Assembly: GCA_041987425.1 (NCBI GenBank)
Contig: JBHIWP010000002.1
Span: 18,608-82,607 of the forward strand
Length of the DNA: 64,000 bases
DNA from: Candidatus Promineifilaceae bacterium
GTDB lineage: Bacteria; Chloroflexota; Anaerolineae; Promineifilales; Promineifilaceae
Reading direction: 5' to 3'
Part shown: piece by piece, positions 25,455 through 55,600 of the stretch
Position numbering within the stretch: the stretch's first letter is position 1
How the letters are laid out: each line of letters begins with the position of its first letter
Made by a program: the position numbers and the translations under genes
The notes under the pieces: model-generated
What the model saw: the letters and a program-made list of their open reading frames with translations, nothing else
Told to the model about the DNA's origin: nothing
The model's database searches: none

Positions 25455-26225
25455 CTAAAACTCTCCTTGAACTTGCCTAACTTCGCGGGTCTTTAACGCA
25501 TGGTGTGTGCCGTTTGATTGACGGCCGTTTTGACTGAGTAAAGAATTGTCTTTAAGCGGGAAAATACCCGTCCACTGATTCATGATTGATTGCTTCACCA
25601 TTGCCGTTGCCATAGCGGGATTGTATTTAGCCAACTCCCTTAACTGCATATCAACAGCCCTTTGCGTCAGCTTTTTGCGCTGCTCTTGCCGCGCCGCAGG
25701 CCACTCTTGCGTAAATACCCGAACAAACTCAGGTGTGTTTAGTTTTTCTGGTATGTTGAATTCAATTTCTTTTTTCTGCCGTTTCTTTTGCGCGTGTGCT
25801 TTTGGTGGTTCTTTTATGGTTCTTGATGGTTCTTGATGGTTCTGGGTGACTGGTGTGTCACCTTTTTGCGCTGGTGTGTCACCTTTTATGACCGTAGTGT
25901 CACCTTTTTGCGCTGGTGTGTCACCTTTTTCTGTCTCATTAAAGGTGACTGGTGTGTCACCTTTTTGAACGCAATTAATCACGTATTCATTGGTATTTCC
26001 GCGCCCTGCGTTACGTTCTATTGTCAGCTCGCCATCTGCCTCGGCCTGAGCAATCAACCGCTTAACGCTGCGCGGCTTCACGTCGATACGGTTAGCCAAT
26101 GTTTCTATAGCAGGCCAGCAACGGCCGTCAGCATCGGCAAATTCAGCCAGGGCAAGCATAAGCAGTTTCCCGTAGCCTGTTTGCTTTGAATGTTCCCAAA
26201 CTGCTTTTGTCGCCTGCCAACTCAT
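25455..26225 (-). CDS. Replication initiator-like protein (N-terminal winged HTH, repeat linker)
   Basis: The N-terminus resembles phage replication/DnaD-type HTH proteins. The central KGDTP(A/V) 7-aa repeats are encoded by 21-bp iterons. Confidence 0.55.
   Translation of the reverse strand: MSWQATKAVWEHSKQTGYGKLLMLALAEFADADGRCWPAIETLANRIDVKPRSVKRLIAQAEADGELTIERNAGRGNTNEYVINCVQKGDTPVTFNETEKGDTPAQKGDTTVIKGDTPAQKGDTPVTQNHQEPSRTIKEPPKAHAQKKRQKKEIEFNIPEKLNTPEFVRVFTQEWPAARQEQRKKLTQRAVDMQLRELAKYNPAMATAMVKQSIMNQWTGIFPLKDNSLLSQNGRQSNGTHHALKTREVRQVQGEF
25738..25966. repeat. Candidate phage replication origin: iterons plus an adjacent A/T-rich tract inside the initiator gene
   Basis: GGTGTGTCACCTTTT-type 15-mers start at 25852, 25873, 25894 (variant), 25915 and 25951, spaced 21 bp. 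ATGGTTCTTG occurs three times (third copy ATGGTTCTGG) at 25817-25846. An A/T-rich tract spans 25738-25790. Confidence 0.5.
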
Positions 26226-32366: not shown

Positions 32367-32438
32367 GGGCCTGTAGCTCAACGGCAGAGCAGTCGGCTCA
32401 TAACCGATCGGTTTCAGGTTCGAATCCTGGCAGGCCCA
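32367..32438 (+). tRNA. tRNA with CAU anticodon (elongator Met type, or Ile2)
   Basis: Hand-folded cloverleaf of 72 nt. Acceptor GGGCCTG/CAGGCCC, D stem GCTC/GAGC, anticodon loop CTCATAA, T arm TCAGG-TTCGAAT-CCTGG. G1-C72 is paired, so it is not an initiator. Confidence 0.85.
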
Positions 32439-40420: not shown

Positions 40421-40457
40421 TTGGCGATTGGAAAAGTCTTTAATCTCCAATCTCCAA
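40421..40457. repeat. Heptamer-repeat hairpin (unit TTGGAGA) spanning the hisI stop codon
   Basis: TTGGCGATTGGAAAAG tc TTTAATCTCCAATCTCCAA. The last hisI codons (LEIGD) and the stop lie inside the right arm. Confidence 0.6.
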
Positions 40458-40766
40458 TTGCCTATGAAAACAGCTCATCTCCCCCGTGTGGCAGGCCGGT
40501 CCAGCAGGCTCCACCTGCAGCAGCAGGGTGTCGCCGTCGCAGTCTACGTGGATGTCCTTGACGCGCTGCACGTTGCCGGAGGTACCGCCCTTGTGCCACA
40601 GCTTCTGGCGGCTGCGGCTCCAAAAGTGGGCCTCGCCCGTTTCCAGCGTCAGCCGTAATGCATCGGCGTTCATCCAGGCCACCATCAATATTTCGTGGGT
40701 GGTGTGATGTTGGAGAACGGCCGTAATCAGACCCTTCTCATCAAATTTTAGGCCGTTGAATAACAT
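40440..40766 (-). CDS. hisI: Phosphoribosyl-AMP cyclohydrolase
   Basis: [17 protein letters not shown] and DCDGDTLL motifs. Confidence 0.9.
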
Positions 40767-40804: not shown

Positions 40805-41173
40805 TTATATGTTTGGTTGCTGATACCTTTGAATTTCTAAAACATCCCCATTTCGATCTGTCCACTTTTTTGGTTGCAGAGTAATATTTTCAATCATTCC
40901 TGCTGCATACTGTGCCCAGTTGTAAAGTATGCCACCTTGCTTCTCAGCAAGCCAACCTTGTTGCCAAAATTCCTCGAAAAACTCTAAGAACTGTTGTGCA
41001 TCAATGAGATATTCATCTTCGCCGTTATCATCTTGTAGACCACTAGAACATTCAAGAAATTGAAGCTCGATTAGGTGGGTAATTTTGTAGAATAACTTTG
41101 CTCGCCCATTTGACATGCTGGCCGCGAAACGCTTATTTCCATCTTTTAACAAAGCTATAAATATTTTTCCCAT
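40805..41173 (-). CDS. Orphan protein inserted between hisF and hisI (A/T-rich)
   Basis: 122-aa ORF with no motif recognised. Its composition is clearly more A/T-rich than the flanking his genes. Confidence 0.5.
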   Translation of the reverse strand: MGKIFIALLKDGNKRFAASMSNGRAKLFYKITHLIELQFLECSSGLQDDNGEDEYLIDAQQFLEFFEEFWQQGWLAEKQGGILYNWAQYAAGMIENITLQPKKWTDRNGDVLEIQRYQQPNI

Positions 41174-41203: not shown

Positions 41204-42031
41204 CTATTGTCTAACTGGGATATTTTGCAGCGCCAGGTAATCCTTCACTTCGGCGATGGTGAGCTGTTTGTAGTGAAACAGCGAAGCGGCGAGAGCCGCA
41301 TCCGCGCCGCCTTCCGTCAATGCCTGGGCAAAGTGGTGCAGCGTGCCAGCACCGCCGGAGGCAATGACGGGGATGTTGACCGCGTCGGCAATGGCACGAG
41401 TGAGTTCGATGTCATAGCCTTCTTGCGTGCCGTCCCCGTCCATGCTGGTGAGCAAAATCTCGCCCGCGCCGCGCCGCTCGGCCTCCTTGGCCCATTCGAC
41501 AGCGTCCAGCCCGGTGGGGGTGCGGCCGCCGCTGACGTACACTTCCCAATGGTTAATGGTTAATGGTAAATTGTTAATGCTTAATTGCTGTTCATTCAAC
41601 TGATCACTGCTTACCGAAGCCCGCTCACCAACCCGTCGCGCGTCAATTGCCACCACCACCGCCTGGCTGCCAAAGGCTTCGGCGCCCTGGCTGATGATCT
41701 CCGGGTTGCGCACGGCCGCAGAGTTGATGCTGATCTTGTCTGCCCCGGCGCGCAAAATGCCGCGCATGTCTTCCACCGTGCGGATGCCGCCCCCGATGGT
41801 AAAGGGAATGAACACCTGCTCCGCCACGGCGCGCGCCAGCTCCATCACCGTGTTGCGCGCCTCATGGGTGGCCGTGATGTCTAGAAAAACCAGCTCATCG
41901 GCCCCGGCTTGATCATAAAGCCTGGCCTGCTCCACCGGATCGCCCGCGTCGCGCAGCTCAACAAAGTTGATGCCTTTGACCACACGGCCGTCTTTCACGT
42001 CTAAGCAGGGAATAATGCGTTTGGCTAACAT
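41204..42031 (-). CDS. hisF: Imidazole glycerol phosphate synthase, cyclase subunit
   Basis: [37 protein letters not shown]. Carries a 21-aa repeat-derived insert. Confidence 0.9.
41549..41611 (-). repeat. Nine tandem heptamers (63 nt) in frame inside hisF
   Basis: The coding strand reads CAGTGAT CAGTTGA ATGAACA GCAATTA AGCATTA ACAATTT ACCATTA ACCATTA ACCATTG, encoding [21 protein letters not shown]. Confidence 0.75.
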
Positions 42032-42044
42032 AAAAGCTCTCTTG

Positions 42045-42785
42045 TCAGTCGGCGCGCACGGTATTGAACGCTTCTTGCAGGTCTAAACGGCCGTCATAAA
42101 TGGCACGTCCGGTAATCACCCCAACCACACCATGTTCCGCCTGGGCGTGACAGCGGCGAATGTCTTCCATTGAGGCCACGCCCCCGGAAGCGATGACCTG
42201 CAAGCCCGTCACCTGGCTCAGCTGCACCGTCGCCTGCACATCTACACCGCTTAACACGCCATCACGACCAATGTCGGTGTAGATAATGGTTTTGACCCCG
42301 CGCTCTTTCATATCCTTGCCCAGATCAACGGGATTCATGGCCGTATCGCGCTGCCAGCCTCTCGTCTTAACACGGCCGTTGCGCGCATCTATACCCACCA
42401 ATATTTTACTCTTGCCAAACTTTTCCACGGCTTTGCTAACCAGGTCTGGCTTTTCGATGGCCACCGTGCCCAAAATGACCCGGTTAGCGCCAGCGTCCAG
42501 GGCTCGCGCCACATCATCCAGGCTGCGGACGCCGCCGCCAAACTGCACCTTCACGTCTAGCTGGGCGATGGCAGGCAACGCAGCCCAGTTAGCTGCACTG
42601 GCTTCGTCCAGAGCGCCGTCCAGGTTGACCACGTGCAGCCACCTGGCTCCGGCGTCAACCCATTTTTGGGCCATTTTGACGGGATTATTGCCAAACACGG
42701 TTTCTTTTTCAGGATCGCCATGCTCCAGCCGCACGACACGGCCGTTGCGTAAATCAATAGCGGGGAATATCGTGAACTTACTCAA
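42045..42785 (-). CDS. hisA: ProFAR isomerase
   Basis: [34 protein letters not shown]. Confidence 0.9.
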
Positions 42786-42803: not shown

Positions 42804-42862
42804 GGTAATTGTGTAATTAAGCGATTGGGTAATTACCCAGTTACTCAGTTACCCAATTACAC
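42804..42862. repeat. Octamer-period repeat hairpin in the hisA-hisH spacer
   Basis: GTAATTGT GTAATTAA GCGATTGG GTAATTAC CCAGTTAC TCAGTTAC CCAATTAC, with a central palindrome GGGTAATTACCC. It overlaps the hisH stop. Confidence 0.6.
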
Positions 42863-43528
42863 TTTTTCTACAAAGTTTCTCAAAATCGTTAAACCTACAC
42901 TCTGGCTCTTTTCCGGGTGGAATTGCAGACCATAGATATTATCCTTAGCTACCACAGATGCAAAGGGAAAACCATAGTCAGTCCAGGCAAGAACGGCCGT
43001 TGCATCGTCCGCATCGCAGTAGTAAGAATGGACAAAGTAAGCGTAGTCGCCCGTTTTTACGCCATTCAGCAGCGGATTGTCCCAGGCGGGTTCCAACTGG
43101 TTCCAGCCCATGTGGGGAACTTTTAAATGGTTAATGGTTAATTGTGAATGGTGAATGGTTAACGGATTGGCTTCATTACCCATTAGCCCTTTCTCTGGAA
43201 ACCGCACCACCTTGCCCGCCAGTAAATCCAGGCCCTCGTGGACGCCCATTTCATGCCCTTCCGTGAACATGAGCTGCATTCCGACACAGATGCCCAAAAA
43301 AGGAACGCCGCGCTGCACGGCTTCGTGAATGGCTTCGGGCAGGTTGTGCCGTCGCAGGCCATCCATGCCAGAGCCAAAAGCGCCCACGCCGGGCAGCACC
43401 AGCTTGTCGGCACGGCGCACTACCTCCGCGTCGTCCGTCAGGTGCACCTCGGCCCCAATATACTCAAATGCCTTCTGCGCCGAGCGAATGTTGCTGGCGC
43501 CGTAGTCGATCATGGTGATTTTGGTCAT
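42857..43528 (-). CDS. hisH: Imidazole glycerol phosphate synthase, glutaminase subunit
   Basis: GVGAFG, ICVGMQL, PHMGWN, HSYY, FHPEKS. Carries a repeat-derived insert before PHMGWN. Confidence 0.9.
   Translation of the reverse strand: MTKITMIDYGASNIRSAQKAFEYIGAEVHLTDDAEVVRRADKLVLPGVGAFGSGMDGLRRHNLPEAIHEAVQRGVPFLGICVGMQLMFTEGHEMGVHEGLDLLAGKVVRFPEKGLMGNEANPLTIHHSQLTINHLKVPHMGWNQLEPAWDNPLLNGVKTGDYAYFVHSYYCDADDATAVLAWTDYGFPFASVVAKDNIYGLQFHPEKSQSVGLTILRNFVEKV
43121..43162 (-). repeat. Six tandem heptamers (42 nt, unit TTAACCA) in frame inside hisH
   Basis: The coding strand reads TTAACCA TTCACCA TTCACAA TTAACCA TTAACCA TTTAAAA, encoding LTIHHSQLTINHLK. Confidence 0.75.
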
Positions 43529-45540: not shown

Positions 45541-45936
45541 TTAGAGGTTGAGAGCCACACGCTTGATGCCACCAACTTTTAGTCGGCGCACGTTGAAATT
45601 TAGTAGCAACCCTAGCTTTAGATTTGCCAGCTTTAAGTAGGACATTAATTGTGCCTGGTGTATGGCTTCAAATTTTTTGATAGCTTTTAGCTCCACAACA
45701 ACAAGATTTTCTACTACAAAGTCCGCTCTATAAGCATTCTCCACAGGAAGTTGTTTGTAGATTAACGGGATGGTTCTTTCGCGCTCATATTCAATGTTTC
45801 GCAATGCCATCTCATGAGCCAAACAGGCCTGATAAGCTGACTCTAGCAAGCCAGGACCGAGATGTTTATGTACTTCAATGGCCGCCCCGATAATCTTTCC
45901 CGTAATCTTGTCTTCTTCTCGCATTGGCTCTCTCAT
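45541..45936 (-). CDS. GxxExxY family protein (PD-(D/E)XK-like, PDDEXK_3)
   Basis: KIIGAAIEVHKHLGPGLLESAYQACLAHEM contains the GxxExxY signature. The start was set at the first ATG (45936), because the ORF-track start is a TTG. Confidence 0.75.
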   Translation of the reverse strand: MREPMREEDKITGKIIGAAIEVHKHLGPGLLESAYQACLAHEMALRNIEYERERTIPLIYKQLPVENAYRADFVVENLVVVELKAIKKFEAIHQAQLMSYLKLANLKLGLLLNFNVRRLKVGGIKRVALNL

Positions 45937-45942
45937 ATTCAA

Positions 45943-47306: not shown

Positions 47307-47377
47307 AGGAAGTGAAGAGTGAGAAGTGAAAAGTAAAAAGAACCCACTTATCACTTTTCACTTTTTACTTATCACTC
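47307..47377. repeat. Heptamer-repeat hairpin (unit AAGTGA[A/G]) filling the hisG-hisD spacer
   Basis: GAAGTGA AGAGTGA GAAGTGA AAAGTAA AAAG aaccca CTTATCA CTTTTCA CTTTTTA CTTATCA CTC. The arms pair over about 30 bp by hand and overlap the hisG stop. Confidence 0.65.
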
Positions 47378-52679: not shown

Positions 52680-55600
52680 TTACCGCTTCACAAACGGCAA
52701 ATAGATGAAATAGTCTGCACCACTGCCGGGGTCCACCGTTGGCGTCATCTCCGGAGTTGGTGATGGGCCAGGAGTTGGCGAAGGCCCCGGGGTAGACGTA
52801 GGCGGAATGGGTGTATTGGTCGGCGTTGGCGTGTTGGTCGGCGTCGGTGTGTTCGTTGCCGTCGGCGTATTTGTTGGCGTTGGCGTGGGTGTATTCGTCG
52901 CTGTCGCTGTTGGCGTGGGCGTAACGGACGGCGTCGGCGTGGGGCTTAGATTCTCGGTGGAATCGGCCGCGTAGGTGCCTCGCGTCAGGCTGGCTGTGGT
53001 AAGACCAACCAGGCGGAACATTTGTCCCTGTGCCGTGACATTGGAGGCCAGGTCCCAGCAGGCGGCGCTGCCCGGTACGGTACAGTCGGCCGTGTCGCTA
53101 ACTTCCATTAGCCGCTGCTGGTTGAACACGTCGGCCAGGCATTGTGAATTGTTATCTACCGGCAGCTGCAATGTCCACGTTGTGCCGGTTGTGGGCACGC
53201 CTCGCACGAAATATTCGTAGTAATCAGAGCACATGCTGGTGCTGCTGGTATTGAGCGGCGTGCTGAAAGGGGCGTTGGTGAGGGAACGGCCGTAGCTCAC
53301 AATAACCGGTGTGCCAGAGCGATTGTTACTTTCTAACGTAGCGTCACCCAACTTGGCGCGGCCTGTCCGGCTAGAAAGGTCGGTCCAGGCAACGACGTTG
53401 GCCGCCAAACGGGCATCCCAGGCAGCCTGGGGGATACCGGAACCAGCGGGAGGCGTCTCGCCCAGGGCTACGCCCCAGAAGTTGTTGTTCAGGTTGGCCG
53501 TGCCGCTAATGGACTGGGTGTAAGCAATCGTAGAGTCTGTAATATTGTTGGCATAGGCGTCAATAATACCTTCATTTTGCTGGATAGCGGTTGTATTATC
53601 GACGAGCGTATTGCCCTTTATGATGACATCACTGGGGCCAGTAATACTAACGGCCTGGTTGAAACCGGTGATGGTGTTATTTTTGATGAGGATACGGCCG
53701 TTGCCCGAAGCGCGTACGGCCGTGGTCGTCTCACAGTTGGCCGAGCAGGTCAGGTTCAGGTTCAGAATGGTCATGTTGCCCACACTCTGAGCCGAAATCA
53801 TGCGGCTGTTAGCACCGCCCACCCAGTTCAGCGTGGCGTTATTGCTGCCGTACAGCACAACGCTGCCGGTCCCGCTGCCGCTGGCTACCAGGGGAGCAGA
53901 AATATTGAAGTTGCCAATGATTGTGAGCGAATCCCCGCTGGGTATGGTGTTTAAAGCCGTTTGAATGTTGTTGAAGTCACAGCCGGAGGCGCACACGGTC
54001 CAGGGTTCCACCAGGGCTTCTAAAAAGTCCAAAATGCGCTCTGCATTTTCTGATCCCGCCACCACGGAGGGGCGGCCTACCAGCCCAAACGACGGCGAAT
54101 CCTGGAACTCTGGCCCACCGTAGAAGGTAATGGCCCGGCGCAGGTCTACTCGAGTGTGGTTGTGGAAGAATGGCGCTGTAAGATCAGTACCGAACAGGCC
54201 GGGTGTGCTGTAGGCGCGGGTGCTGACGCCGTTGCCGTCGGGCTCCTCCGGCGGCATGCCATCGGCGGCGTTGACGGCGATCTCGTCTGTGCCGGTGTCA
54301 AAAACCCCGTTCTCTCCTTCGGCAAAGCCGCGCACCGTGCCGTCGGTGGTCGCCAACACCGGGCCAGAGTGGCAGCGAGAGCACTTGGCCGCCGGGCCAA
54401 AGAAAATCTCACGGCCCAAAATCTGCTCATCGGTCACCGCAAAGCGGTCCAGGTCATAGTTGCCATCGGCAGGCAGGCGGATGGTGAACTGGAAGGCTTC
54501 CAGGGCAGCCCGCTCGTCCTCCGTGGGCAGGCGGAAGTCGATGCCCTCGCGCCGCAGCAGGCTGCGCGGCGCGTGCTGCTCCACCGCTCCGGCGGAAAAG
54601 TCACCCAGGTCGGCAATCTCAGAGCTGAAGCCGTAGGGAGCGGTGTGCTCCAGGTTAAACAAAGCGGGCGAGGCGCGAAACACCTCAATCTGGTCGAAGC
54701 CATCGATATTTTCCAGGATCAGGGCACGGCCGTCTGGGAAGCTCACTGTGTTGGCAGAGGGGCCGTGCATCAGCGTGAAATTCTCCAGCCCGTTGGCACT
54801 GCCGTTGACTGGGTTTGGTCCGGCCAGGTCGCCATTGGTAAAGGAAATAAAAGTGGCGCTATTGCCCAAGCTGTCCGTGATGGTGCCTGAAAGGTCATCA
54901 CCACCATAAATTAGATACGTATTGCCATAGCCAGCCAGAACGGTGGCCGAGCCAGTGGTGCCGCTAATATCCCCGCGCAGGTCGCTGGGCTGGGCAAAGC
55001 CGCTGGGGGCGCTGGAGGTAACCACCAGCGTGTTGACGTTGTACTCATTGACGAAGAGCACGTCATGGGCGGGCTTGTTGAGGACCTGGTCGGGGGAGAG
55101 GCCGAAGTCGCCGTTGTCGGGCACGTGGCAAGAGCCGCAGGTACGGCCGTTGCCCAGGAAAGTCTCCTGGTTAAACAAAATCTCGCCCTGATCTGCCAGG
55201 GGAGCCACGGAGGGCACAACGGTAAAGGTTTGCCCGGCTGTGTTTACAGGATTGGGCGGTCCCATAGCAAAATCACTATTATTTTGCGTACCAGTGCCGA
55301 AGCCGCTGCCGCTCACTCGCTTGAGAGCGGCGGTGTTTAAAATGGGCAGTTCGGCGCTGCTAGGGCCGTCATTGGCGCCTGCGGTGCTGCCGCTGTAGCC
55401 TGCACCGCCGTAAGAAAGGGCCACGTTGACGCTGGTGCTATTGATATTGTCCGGGTTGTTTTGGAAGGCAACTTTACCGGCGACGGGAATGATATCGGCA
55501 GGCATGATGAAGTCTGGAGCGGGAGCGCCGGGCAGGGCGGCGAACTTCTCTGTGGCTACCAGAACGGTGCTTTCACCAGAGGAGGGATCGTTGGGGAATA

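Follow-up and report, generated by a model that had tools for sequence, protein, structure and literature searches.

The 64-kb stretch of DNA analysed here (the window) comes from contig JBHIWP010000002.1 of a Candidatus Promineifilaceae bacterium and contains a histidine operon. Within this operon, hisF, which encodes the cyclase subunit of imidazole glycerol phosphate synthase, carries an in-frame insert composed of 7-nt repeats. The insert is probably an old pair of heptanucleotide arrays kept in frame, with a G-rich array on the 5′ side and a C-containing array on the 3′ side, a member of a lineage-wide population of such arrays and a passenger in its host enzyme. An in-frame heptamer insert at this place had been proposed in an earlier note (the original prediction). 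It is recovered by Tandem Repeats Finder (TRF), by a search with the 14-mer ACCATTAACCATTA, by the open reading frame (ORF), which reads through it, and by the loop letters, which stand as they were written.

Alignments with HisF sequences from the PDB cover only window residues 1-135 and 161-275 and leave the insert unaligned, so the extra piece corresponds to about E136-H161 (Table 1). It amounts to about 26 codons relative to the PDB sequences and to 23 relative to insert-free orthologues, in which the loop reads TSSGS. A segment of about 23-26 codons replaces the proposed size of exactly 63 nt or 21 codons. The proposed nine units of one repeat are likewise reduced: only about 5.4 units are of the ACCATTA type, and CAGTGAT, CAGTTGA and ATGAACA form the tail of a second array. 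The insert is bipartite, with a G-rich, C-poor arm on the 5′ side (left arm) and a C-containing, G-free arm on the 3′ side (right arm). The two arms belong to different unit families, which agree at only 5 of 7 positions. TRF reports the right arm as period 7 at 41548-41585, with the unit AATGGTT on the plus strand, or ACCATTA in the coding sense (5.4 copies, 83% matches). The left arm can be recognised only through the DNA of orthologues in related loci (numbered with the prefix L), where L081, L082 and L085 keep 6-7 units of AATCAGT, ATTCAGT, AATCGGT, GATCAGT and similar sequences.

The composition and periodicity of the insert set it apart from the gene around it. The GC content is 0.33-0.37 within the insert vs about 0.65 across the gene, and 0.40 in the loop from the RR pair to the tryptophan (RR-to-W loop, residues 134-162) vs 0.62 in the core. 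A lag-7 autocorrelation scan of the window detects four period-7 arrays, compared with 0-1 for the other periods from 4 to 14. In hisH, TRF finds the AATGGTT/ACCATTA unit again at 43126-43162 (5.3 copies), and pattern searching agrees with the proposal that hisF and hisH inserts have a unit in common. The 14-mer ACCATTAACCATTA, with at most two mismatches, occurs seven times in the window, all within the hisF and hisH arrays, against an expectation of 0.51 and with seven reached in none of 100 shuffles. The two inserts have nothing but this 7-nt unit in common. Perfect periodicity extends over no more than 20 nt in hisF and 17 nt in hisH.

The host protein retains the features of HisF. The Pfam family PF00977 (His_biosynth) covers residues 5-257 in one stretch (profile positions 1-227 of 228, E 4e-83), and the match to PDB HisF sequences reaches E 2.6e-105. 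In an alignment of 39 HisF sequences, Asp11, Asp130 and about 130 further positions are invariant. Compared with six relatives, the hisF core is 0.95-0.98 identical at codon positions 1 and 2 and 0.54-0.66 identical at position 3. These values point to an intact gene under strong purifying selection and support the assignment of the window gene as a functional HisF. No second hisF is found in the 64-kb window, where the sole other match is the paralogue hisA at 25% identity. By the Pfam match, the codon-position identities and the two conserved aspartates, the proposed tolerance of a repeat-derived segment in a functional HisF is upheld, and the pseudogene weighed as its alternative is not what the gene resembles.

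The AlphaFold2 (AF2) model of the window protein, built with the 39-sequence alignment, has a predicted TM-score (pTM) of 0.82 with a confident barrel, and its target-normalised TM-score against HisF crystal structures is 0.91-0.96. Residues 137-157 have a predicted local distance difference test (pLDDT) value below 50 and are flanked by strands 125-134 and 161-166, in agreement with the surface loop that had been expected. Strand 125-134 corresponds to β5 and its extension, bearing Asp130. The model thus places the insert at a β-hairpin tip after Asp130, in βα loop 5 of the barrel's catalytic face. HisH docks on the N-terminal barrel face of HisF, opposite the catalytic face (for example in 1GPW).

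The reading frame through the right arm bears a clear imprint of stop-codon removal. A perfect (TTAACCA)n array contains one TAA per 21 nt in each frame. In hisF, such an array would read LTINH(stop)PLTINH(stop), and the gene has TTA in place of the internal TAA. The array ends where the next TAA would come, at the native Trp162 codon TGG. In hisH, the two in-frame TAA positions read TCA and TTA, changes that are old because they are common to L082. The frame is kept by removal of stops at exactly the in-frame TAA positions.

The loop was followed across relatives through a search of 5.8 billion proteins, which yields 120 close HisF orthologues (77-100% identity) that, where they carry names, belong to Candidatus Leptofilum, Promineifilaceae, Ardenticatenaceae, Anaerolineae or Chloroflexota. 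A contig scan with back-translated HisF patterns returns mostly HisF of Clostridia and about 10 useful Chloroflexota loci. The 120 orthologues measure 252-296 aa, a spread due mostly to the insert loop. A hypervariable, heptamer-coded loop of 9-43 aa is present in 115 of them (Promineifilaceae/Ardenticatenia); a short TSSGS or TSIGS loop is found in the other five, with 92-93% core identity. More distant Chloroflexota HisF proteins have ordinary short loops. The loop peptides are heptamers translated through all three frames: QFTIHNS from (AATTCAC)3, SV(I/V)S(D/E)Q from (CAGTGAT)3, LTINH.P from (TTAACCA)3, and (R)LEIGDW followed by SISNLQSP from (GGAGATT)n and its inverse, also seen as DWRLEIG/SPISNLQ. 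An ancestral conserved loop without connection to repeats, the other alternative that had been named, does not describe a loop that is hypervariable and absent in five orthologues. The window loop DNA is homologous to the loops of L081, L082, L085 and L001. The insert is neither recent nor private: its orthologues include inserts of relatives that have nearly saturated synonymous sites. Insert classes are interspersed on the HisF core tree, from which independent gains are not countable because a 250-aa protein with 80-95% identity resolves weakly.

Loop lengths were compared among relatives that are about equidistant from the window (position-3 identity 0.62-0.66). The RR-to-W loop measures 87 nt in the window (type D+B), 45 nt in L001 and 108 nt in L081 (Candidatus Leptofilum), both of the same type as the window, 108 nt in L082, which has a TTCACAA right arm, and 132 nt in L085, where 108 nt are joined by a 24-nt non-repeat interruption. 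It measures 72 nt in L083, with a different unit family, and 18 nt in the more divergent L084 (position-3 identity 0.54). Relative to the window, the differences are 21 nt for L081 and L082 and 42 nt for L001. The proposal that unit number changes in multiples of three is therefore borne out by 21-nt steps over deeper divergence, and not at close range: loop length is constant in three 90%-identity clusters (of 4, 6 and 10 sequences; loops of 35, 35 and 23 aa), within which the loop sequence accumulates substitutions. The hisF tract thus does not behave as a fast-switching locus in these comparisons. A clean 7-aa quantisation of loop length was sought among the 120 orthologues and only partial series emerged (14/21/28/35, 22/29 and 16/23/30/37).

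Two of the related loci show further peculiarities. In L085, the hisF array is broken at positions 1593-1619 by 24-27 nt of GC-rich sequence without repeats (peptide NVAARPLRVQSP), and no further copy is found when this segment is searched as a dispersed small element in the available DNA. Small dispersed repeats inside heptamer arrays of Nostoc were reportedly described by Elhai et al. in 2008, and the L085 interruption resembles this nesting. In L084, where hisF has no insert, the 12.9-kb contig contains no period-7 array, and the hisH loop is long and not heptamer-like. The presence of arrays may be a genome-wide property.

The window copy has decayed, and other copies at the same site have not. 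The minimum free energy of the window hisF insert gives a z-score of +0.26, with 115 of 200 shuffles folding as well, and the window hisH insert, at z +0.35, folds no better than shuffles; a hairpin or RNA-structure role for these two inserts was rejected on this basis. The left arm is 0.57-0.66 identical to its orthologues, which is the level of synonymous sites, and it looks neutral because of this equality. The right arm is 0.78-0.89 identical to L081, L085 and L001, which share the ACCATTA-type arm, and evolves somewhat more slowly than synonymous sites. The left arm has therefore decayed at a neutral rate and no RNA or DNA hairpin is left. At the same site, the L083 loop consists of (GGAGATT/GGAGACT)x5, a 6-nt centre and (AATCTCC/AGTCTCC)x4, and as RNA forms a hairpin of -51.6 kcal/mol (z -8.2). 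A hairpin is also kept in four further orthologues (L223-L226, -34 to -42 kcal/mol). The arms of these palindromic orthologues are 0.84-0.96 identical to one another vs 0.72-0.81 for synonymous sites of the same genes, and their 11-nt centres are 18-73% identical, leaving aside one near-identical genome pair. Something holds the arms near the unit consensus, whether selection for pairing or homogenisation. The D+E-type hisF insert of L082 was also considered as a palindrome and rejected (z -0.89).

The hisH insert and two further arrays in the window repeat this picture at other sites. The hisH insert encodes an in-frame, ACCATTA-type array, PLTIHHSQLTINHL, in a loop (RFP...LKVPHMGWN) that is hypervariable among relatives. 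In the orthologous insert of L082, (AATGGTT)n and (AACCATT)n arms still form a palindrome (-35.1 kcal/mol, z -5.3), relative to which the window copy has lost part of its left arm. The spacer between hisG and hisD holds a heptamer palindrome that starts within the stop region of hisG and stops about 40 nt short of the ATG of hisD. Its RNA folds into a hairpin (-27.5 kcal/mol, z -3.8), and an orthologous pair occupies positions 3011-3080 of L083. The palindrome may serve to stabilise or process the mRNA between the two cistrons. A GGAGATT array ends the hisI gene; the PRA-CH domain of HisI stops at residue 101 of 108, so that the array falls beyond the domain end, and the array occupies the same place in L001, L081 and L083.

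Table 1 Heptamer arrays and their host genes in the window (positions in the window; coding strand given).
Feature	Position	Strand	Description
HisI 3′ GGAGATT array	40440-40460	minus	2.4 units, TRF 40442-40458; C-terminal tail QLEIGD + stop of HisI
hisF	41204-42031	minus	Imidazole glycerol phosphate synthase cyclase subunit, 275 aa; intact ORF, his operon
hisF extra segment, E136-H161	41549-41626	minus	26 codons, 78 nt, between native RVG and WEVY
hisF insert, right (3′) arm	41549-41584	minus	About 5.4 units TTAACCA/ACCATTA, C-containing, G-free; L150-H161, 12 aa
hisF insert, left (5′) arm	41588-41629	minus	Degenerate G-rich GATCAGT/AATCGGT-type relic from Gly135, 14 aa
hisA	42045-42785	minus	his operon
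hisH	42857-43528	minus	Glutaminase subunit with its own in-frame heptamer insert; Pfam GATase
hisH insert	43124-43185	minus	Right arm TTAACCA/TTCACCA x5.3; decayed inverse left arm TAATGGG TAATGAA
Intergenic heptamer palindrome	47311-47376	minus	(AGTGAAA)~5 then (TTTCACT)~5, from lag-7 scan

Beyond the window, period 7 alone is over-represented in the syntenic loci of relatives, where 20 kb contain as many as 10 such arrays; L082 has 10 period-7 arrays vs none of other periods. Many of these arrays begin at stop codons. A metagenome scan for (GGAGATT)3 returns 120 stretches, and the 80 analysed (434 kb) contain 180 period-7 arrays vs 0-32 for any other period from 4 to 12. The GGAGATT, AGTGAAA and AATCGGT families are found repeatedly, at different loci and in different genomes. 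Of 140 arrays that are not close to contig ends, 63 (45%) lie inside long ORFs, compared with 62% of random windows, where residence means that a frame stays free of stops across the array and for 70 codons or more to either side. Coding sequence in this sample is thus poorer in arrays without being closed to them; the sample was chosen through a single unit, GGAGATT, which is stop-free in any frame. Neither this unit nor its inverse AATCTCC contains a stop in any of the six frames, which fits their frequency in genes. Nine of ten tested array-bearing ORFs encode conserved proteins whose Pfam domains flank or surround the array: CarB (carbamoyl-phosphate synthase large chain), ValRS, FemAB, PrmC, a GT4 glycosyltransferase, a NuoG/formate-dehydrogenase-like molybdopterin oxidoreductase, an ABC ATPase, an NrfD-ferredoxin fusion and a GFO/ADH oxidoreductase. 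In ValRS orthologues of Anaerolineae/Chloroflexota, a hypervariable heptamer-coded linker connects the catalytic and anticodon-binding domains.

Repeats of other kinds are also seen in ValRS orthologues (L115 1183-4059; P0121-P0240), whose further insertion hot spots hold repeat-like peptides without heptamer character: SPPLAGGTKGG-type (G/C-rich, with DNA that is probably palindromic), LVLSEAEG and PSTGSGHR. Judged from these peptides, other small repeat families appear in frame in these genomes as well. The 17 viral contigs of IMG/VR (L206-L222) that contain (GGAGATT)3 add up to 168 kb and bear 42 period-7 arrays from many unit families; arrays are thus also carried by phages or prophages of these hosts, unless the contigs are misclassified host DNA.

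Paired arrays almost always follow one order. When arrays of opposite G-C skew lying at most 40 nt apart are counted, the G-rich arm stands 5′ of the C-rich arm in 44 pairs and 3′ of it in 3, an order that is independent of the strand because a palindrome equals its own reverse complement. The same order holds for complementary pairs (34 vs 2) and for pairs of different unit families (10 vs 1). The unit numbers of the two arms are unequal and variable, and the centres are unconserved. The window hisF insert, a GATCAGT-type array followed by an ACCATTA-type array, is a mismatched convergent pair. The mismatched arms, which obey the polarity as well, speak against an explanation through hairpins alone. 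The process that generates the arrays is directional, as the convergent polarity shows.

In the preferred interpretation, arrays of Promineifilaceae/Ardenticatenia (Chloroflexota) would reside mostly in spacers beside stop codons, often as hairpin-forming convergent pairs, and would often be tolerated in genes at permissive surface loops and linkers as well. The hisF array would have arisen at the HisF loop, or been copied into it, before the species diverged, replacing the native turn of 1-5 residues. Later change would have consisted of 21-nt (3-unit, 7-aa) gains and losses together with point substitutions. Selection on HisF would act only as a filter: the total length stays a multiple of 3, the in-frame TAA of the ACCATTA unit is mutated away, and the peptide does no harm as a disordered protrusion from the catalytic face, at a distance from the face where HisH docks, features to which the stop-codon changes and the model already partly correspond. 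The insert itself most likely does nothing for the enzyme and is carried along. Two observations weigh against this interpretation. Equally related orthologues have D+B, D+E, A+A′ or no array at the same site, and such a mixture strains in-situ slippage of a single insert and hints at replacement or repeated insertion. The palindromic arms are also better conserved than synonymous sites, so some constraint or homogenisation acts on them, and a pure passenger may be too simple a description of the family, even if it fits the decayed window copy.

Transposition of a small mobile palindromic element, resembling a Rickettsia palindromic element (RPE), a REPIN or a miniature inverted-repeat transposable element (MITE), into the hisF loop in frame, followed by decay, is an unlikely origin. 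What weight it retains comes from the orthologues with palindromes and from the exchange of unit families at a single site. In five orthologues the hisF site is taken up by a perfect (GGAGATT)n/(AATCTCC)n palindrome, L082 hisH holds its own palindrome, the same few unit families sit at many unrelated loci in many genomes, an empty site exists beside sites with differing families in equally related orthologues, and the edges of the arrays merge into native codons. The window copy, however, has no fold and its arms differ in family, arm lengths and centres are not those of a fixed element, and the shared polarity of non-complementary pairs is not predicted by a hairpin element. No terminal consensus, target-site duplication or associated transposase is seen, the transposase search not having been exhaustive. 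About as unlikely, on our estimate, is an origin of the arrays as scars of directional repeat addition at DNA ends, instead of slippage or a transposon. Both 3′ ends of a break would gain G-rich heptamers before being joined, giving 5′-(G-rich)n(C-rich)m-3′ on either strand, the polarity of a head-to-head telomere fusion. This would account for the 44:3 polarity, including unequal arms and mixed unit families as in hisF, and for unconserved centres, replaced native loop codons and the all-or-none distribution of arrays among related genomes. If it were true, protein loops of Promineifilaceae would record past break repair, and conserved enzymes would receive a steady supply of new peptide segments.

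Explanations that give the segment a role of its own are less probable still. A functional, lineage-specific extension of HisF, for instance a lid over the site for N′-[(5′-phosphoribulosyl)formimino]-5-aminoimidazole-4-carboxamide ribonucleotide (PRFAR) or a partner-binding or regulatory element with incidental repeat character, is improbable. The loop lies on the catalytic face five residues after Asp130, is related by symmetry to the functional loop 1 known from HisF structures, is retained in enlarged form in 115 of 120 relatives, and has a right arm somewhat more conserved than synonymous sites. It is nevertheless of low complexity and predicted disorder, ranges from 5 to 43 aa with unrelated peptide families at one site, is absent in five orthologues with high core identity, and resembles peptides found in unrelated proteins. 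A contingency locus, in which gain or loss of a single 7-nt unit shifts the frame and switches hisF and hisH as in E. coli K1 neuO, is very improbable. Seven is not a multiple of three, so one-unit slippage would frameshift, two genes of one enzyme complex carry the ACCATTA unit, and neuO is a precedent. The arrays are nonetheless degenerate with short perfect runs, loop length is constant in the three close clusters, the tract lies in the middle of a housekeeping biosynthetic gene, and all 120 orthologues are in frame, a count biased by a search that returns predicted proteins. An assembly or annotation artefact, or a pseudogene, has a negligible probability: the contig is metagenome-assembled and the insert composition atypical, yet homologous inserts occur in more than 100 independent assemblies (NCBI, ENA, JGI, Logan), including a 6.36-Mb Candidatus Leptofilum contig, and the ORF is intact under strong purifying selection.

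The old, in-frame array pair finds its closest known kind in the heptameric simple sequence repeat (SSR) and short tandemly repeated repetitive (STRR) arrays of Nostoc and Xanthomonas, not in the RPE. Cyanobacterial STRR sequences were reportedly described by Mazel et al. in 1990. Rehm et al. 2015 described GGGAATC and GGGGA(T/C)T heptamer arrays in Xanthomonas and Nostoc, with 70-75 convergent GGGAATC pairs per Xanthomonas genome, frequent positions near stop codons, and intragenic fractions of 7-11% in Xanthomonas and 32% in Nostoc PCC 7120 (PMC4692102). Heptamers are the only longer SSR class over-represented in many bacteria, and their origin and role are left open there (PMC4692102); general over-representation of heptamer SSRs is credited to Mrazek et al. 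2007, as cited in PMC4692102. Because convergent pairs were already reported in Xanthomonas (PMC4692102), the polarity is a shared trait of the class and not new.

The hisF insert has the hallmark of at least three head-to-tail 7-nt units (5.4 copies, in agreement with the lag-7 scan), and its population shows the period-7 excess, units at dispersed loci and asymmetric units in convergent pairs. Like the Xanthomonas and Nostoc arrays, those found here are dispersed and of variable length with period 7 alone in excess, have strand-asymmetric, G-rich and C-poor units in frequent convergent pairs, favour positions right after stop codons with a minority intragenic in the sample scanned, and turn over in length and sequence between related species while the site is kept. 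GGAGATT/GGAGACT differs by one base from the Nostoc GGGGATT/GGGGACT. Unlike the class of Rehm et al., the present arrays belong to Chloroflexota (Promineifilaceae), include a unit, ACCATTA, that holds a stop in every frame and needed editing, are predicted to be translated within conserved housekeeping enzymes at orthologous hypervariable loops, and form, in some coding copies, perfect palindromes about 60 nt long. The argument from G-quadruplexes made by Rehm et al. is not applicable, since ACCATTA/AATGGTT, GATCAGT and GGAGATT contain no GGG and thus lack the four or more tracts of at least three G per array that it presupposes. In the literature searched, no heptamer SSRs are described in Chloroflexota and no account is given of heptamer-SSR peptides (SPISNLQ, DWRLEIG, QFTIHNS) or of orthologous enzyme loops, both being weak evidence as subscription papers lay mostly outside the search.

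Other known systems resemble the hisF insert in part. RPE, reportedly described by Ogata et al. 2000, are palindromic elements of defined extent, about 100-150 bp long, that share a family consensus. The original prediction had likened the insert to them, and as a concept the comparison stands: repeat DNA lies in frame in essential genes, adds a surface peptide while the fold is kept, and meets selection as a filter, and orthologous palindromes exist. It does not extend to the window copy, which consists of two short tandem arrays with no hairpin (z as above), no element consensus of about 100-150 bp and no defined boundaries, and no evidence of transposition was found in this comparison. The neuO poly-psi variable number tandem repeat (VNTR) of E. 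coli K1 is reportedly a perfect, highly polymorphic heptanucleotide tract at the 5′ end of the gene, acting as a phase switch. Like neuO, hisF has coding heptanucleotides in which three units make a 7-aa peptide repeat and the frame depends on the unit count; unlike that of neuO, its tract has degenerated, lies inside the gene and does not vary in length between close relatives, so that a long perfect tract with unit-number polymorphism is not found. Repetitive extragenic palindromic (REP) sequences conform to a fixed consensus, palindromic and 20-40 nt long, that is headed by GTAG or CGTC; they lie outside genes and are mobilised by REP-associated tyrosine transposases (RAYTs) (PMC3116915). 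The present arrays share with REP/REPIN sequences the short, dispersed, hairpin-forming character and the location mostly between operon genes, and the hisG-hisD palindrome looks functionally similar; unlike those, the stems here are formed from variable numbers of 7-nt units. No GTAG or CGTC head is visible in the arrays, and no RAYT is seen in the 64-kb window, where no systematic RAYT search was made.

The single hisF insert is ordinary once its class is recognised, and it is the lineage-wide pattern that makes the origin of heptamer repeats measurable. The loops of HisF, HisH, ValRS and other conserved enzymes form a natural experiment in which the same sites are empty, perfectly palindromic, mismatched convergent or decayed across hundreds of assemblies. 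With the host gene as an internal molecular clock, it can be measured how fast arrays arise, are homogenised and decay; the polarity rule is measurable too, and the responsible enzyme could be sought by phylogenetic profiling. A hairpin on the catalytic face of a TIM barrel can accommodate 9-43 low-complexity residues in what is essentially any sequence. In annotation, SPISNLQ, DWRLEIG, QFTIHNS and LTINH in Chloroflexota proteins are to be read as translated heptamer arrays and not as domains.

The his operon runs on the minus strand in the order hisG-D-(PDDEXK_3)-C-B-H-A-F-(orphan ORF)-I-E, and this synteny is shared with L081-L085. The gene between hisD and hisC encodes a 133-aa protein of the PDDEXK_3 nuclease superfamily (45541-45942 minus, E 3.5e-42). 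L082 and L083 have this gene and L081 does not, and it looks like a small gene that comes and goes within the operon. The orphan ORF between hisF and hisI (40805-41173 minus, 122 aa, GC 0.35-0.40) has no Pfam match. The same slot in relatives holds unrelated ORFs of 313 (L083), 318 (L085), 326 (L225), 115 (L224) and 116 aa (L223) and no ORF in L081, L082 and L226, as expected of a variable insertion slot. An Rfam scan of the whole window at the gathering threshold assigns neither the hisF nor the hisH insert to a known RNA family, its sole match being a tRNA at 32367-32438 (+, 68.9 bits). Other tandem repeats of the window have period 10 (x4.1) beside period 21 (x3.9) at 25802-25930 and period 18 (x4.0) at 52816-52887.

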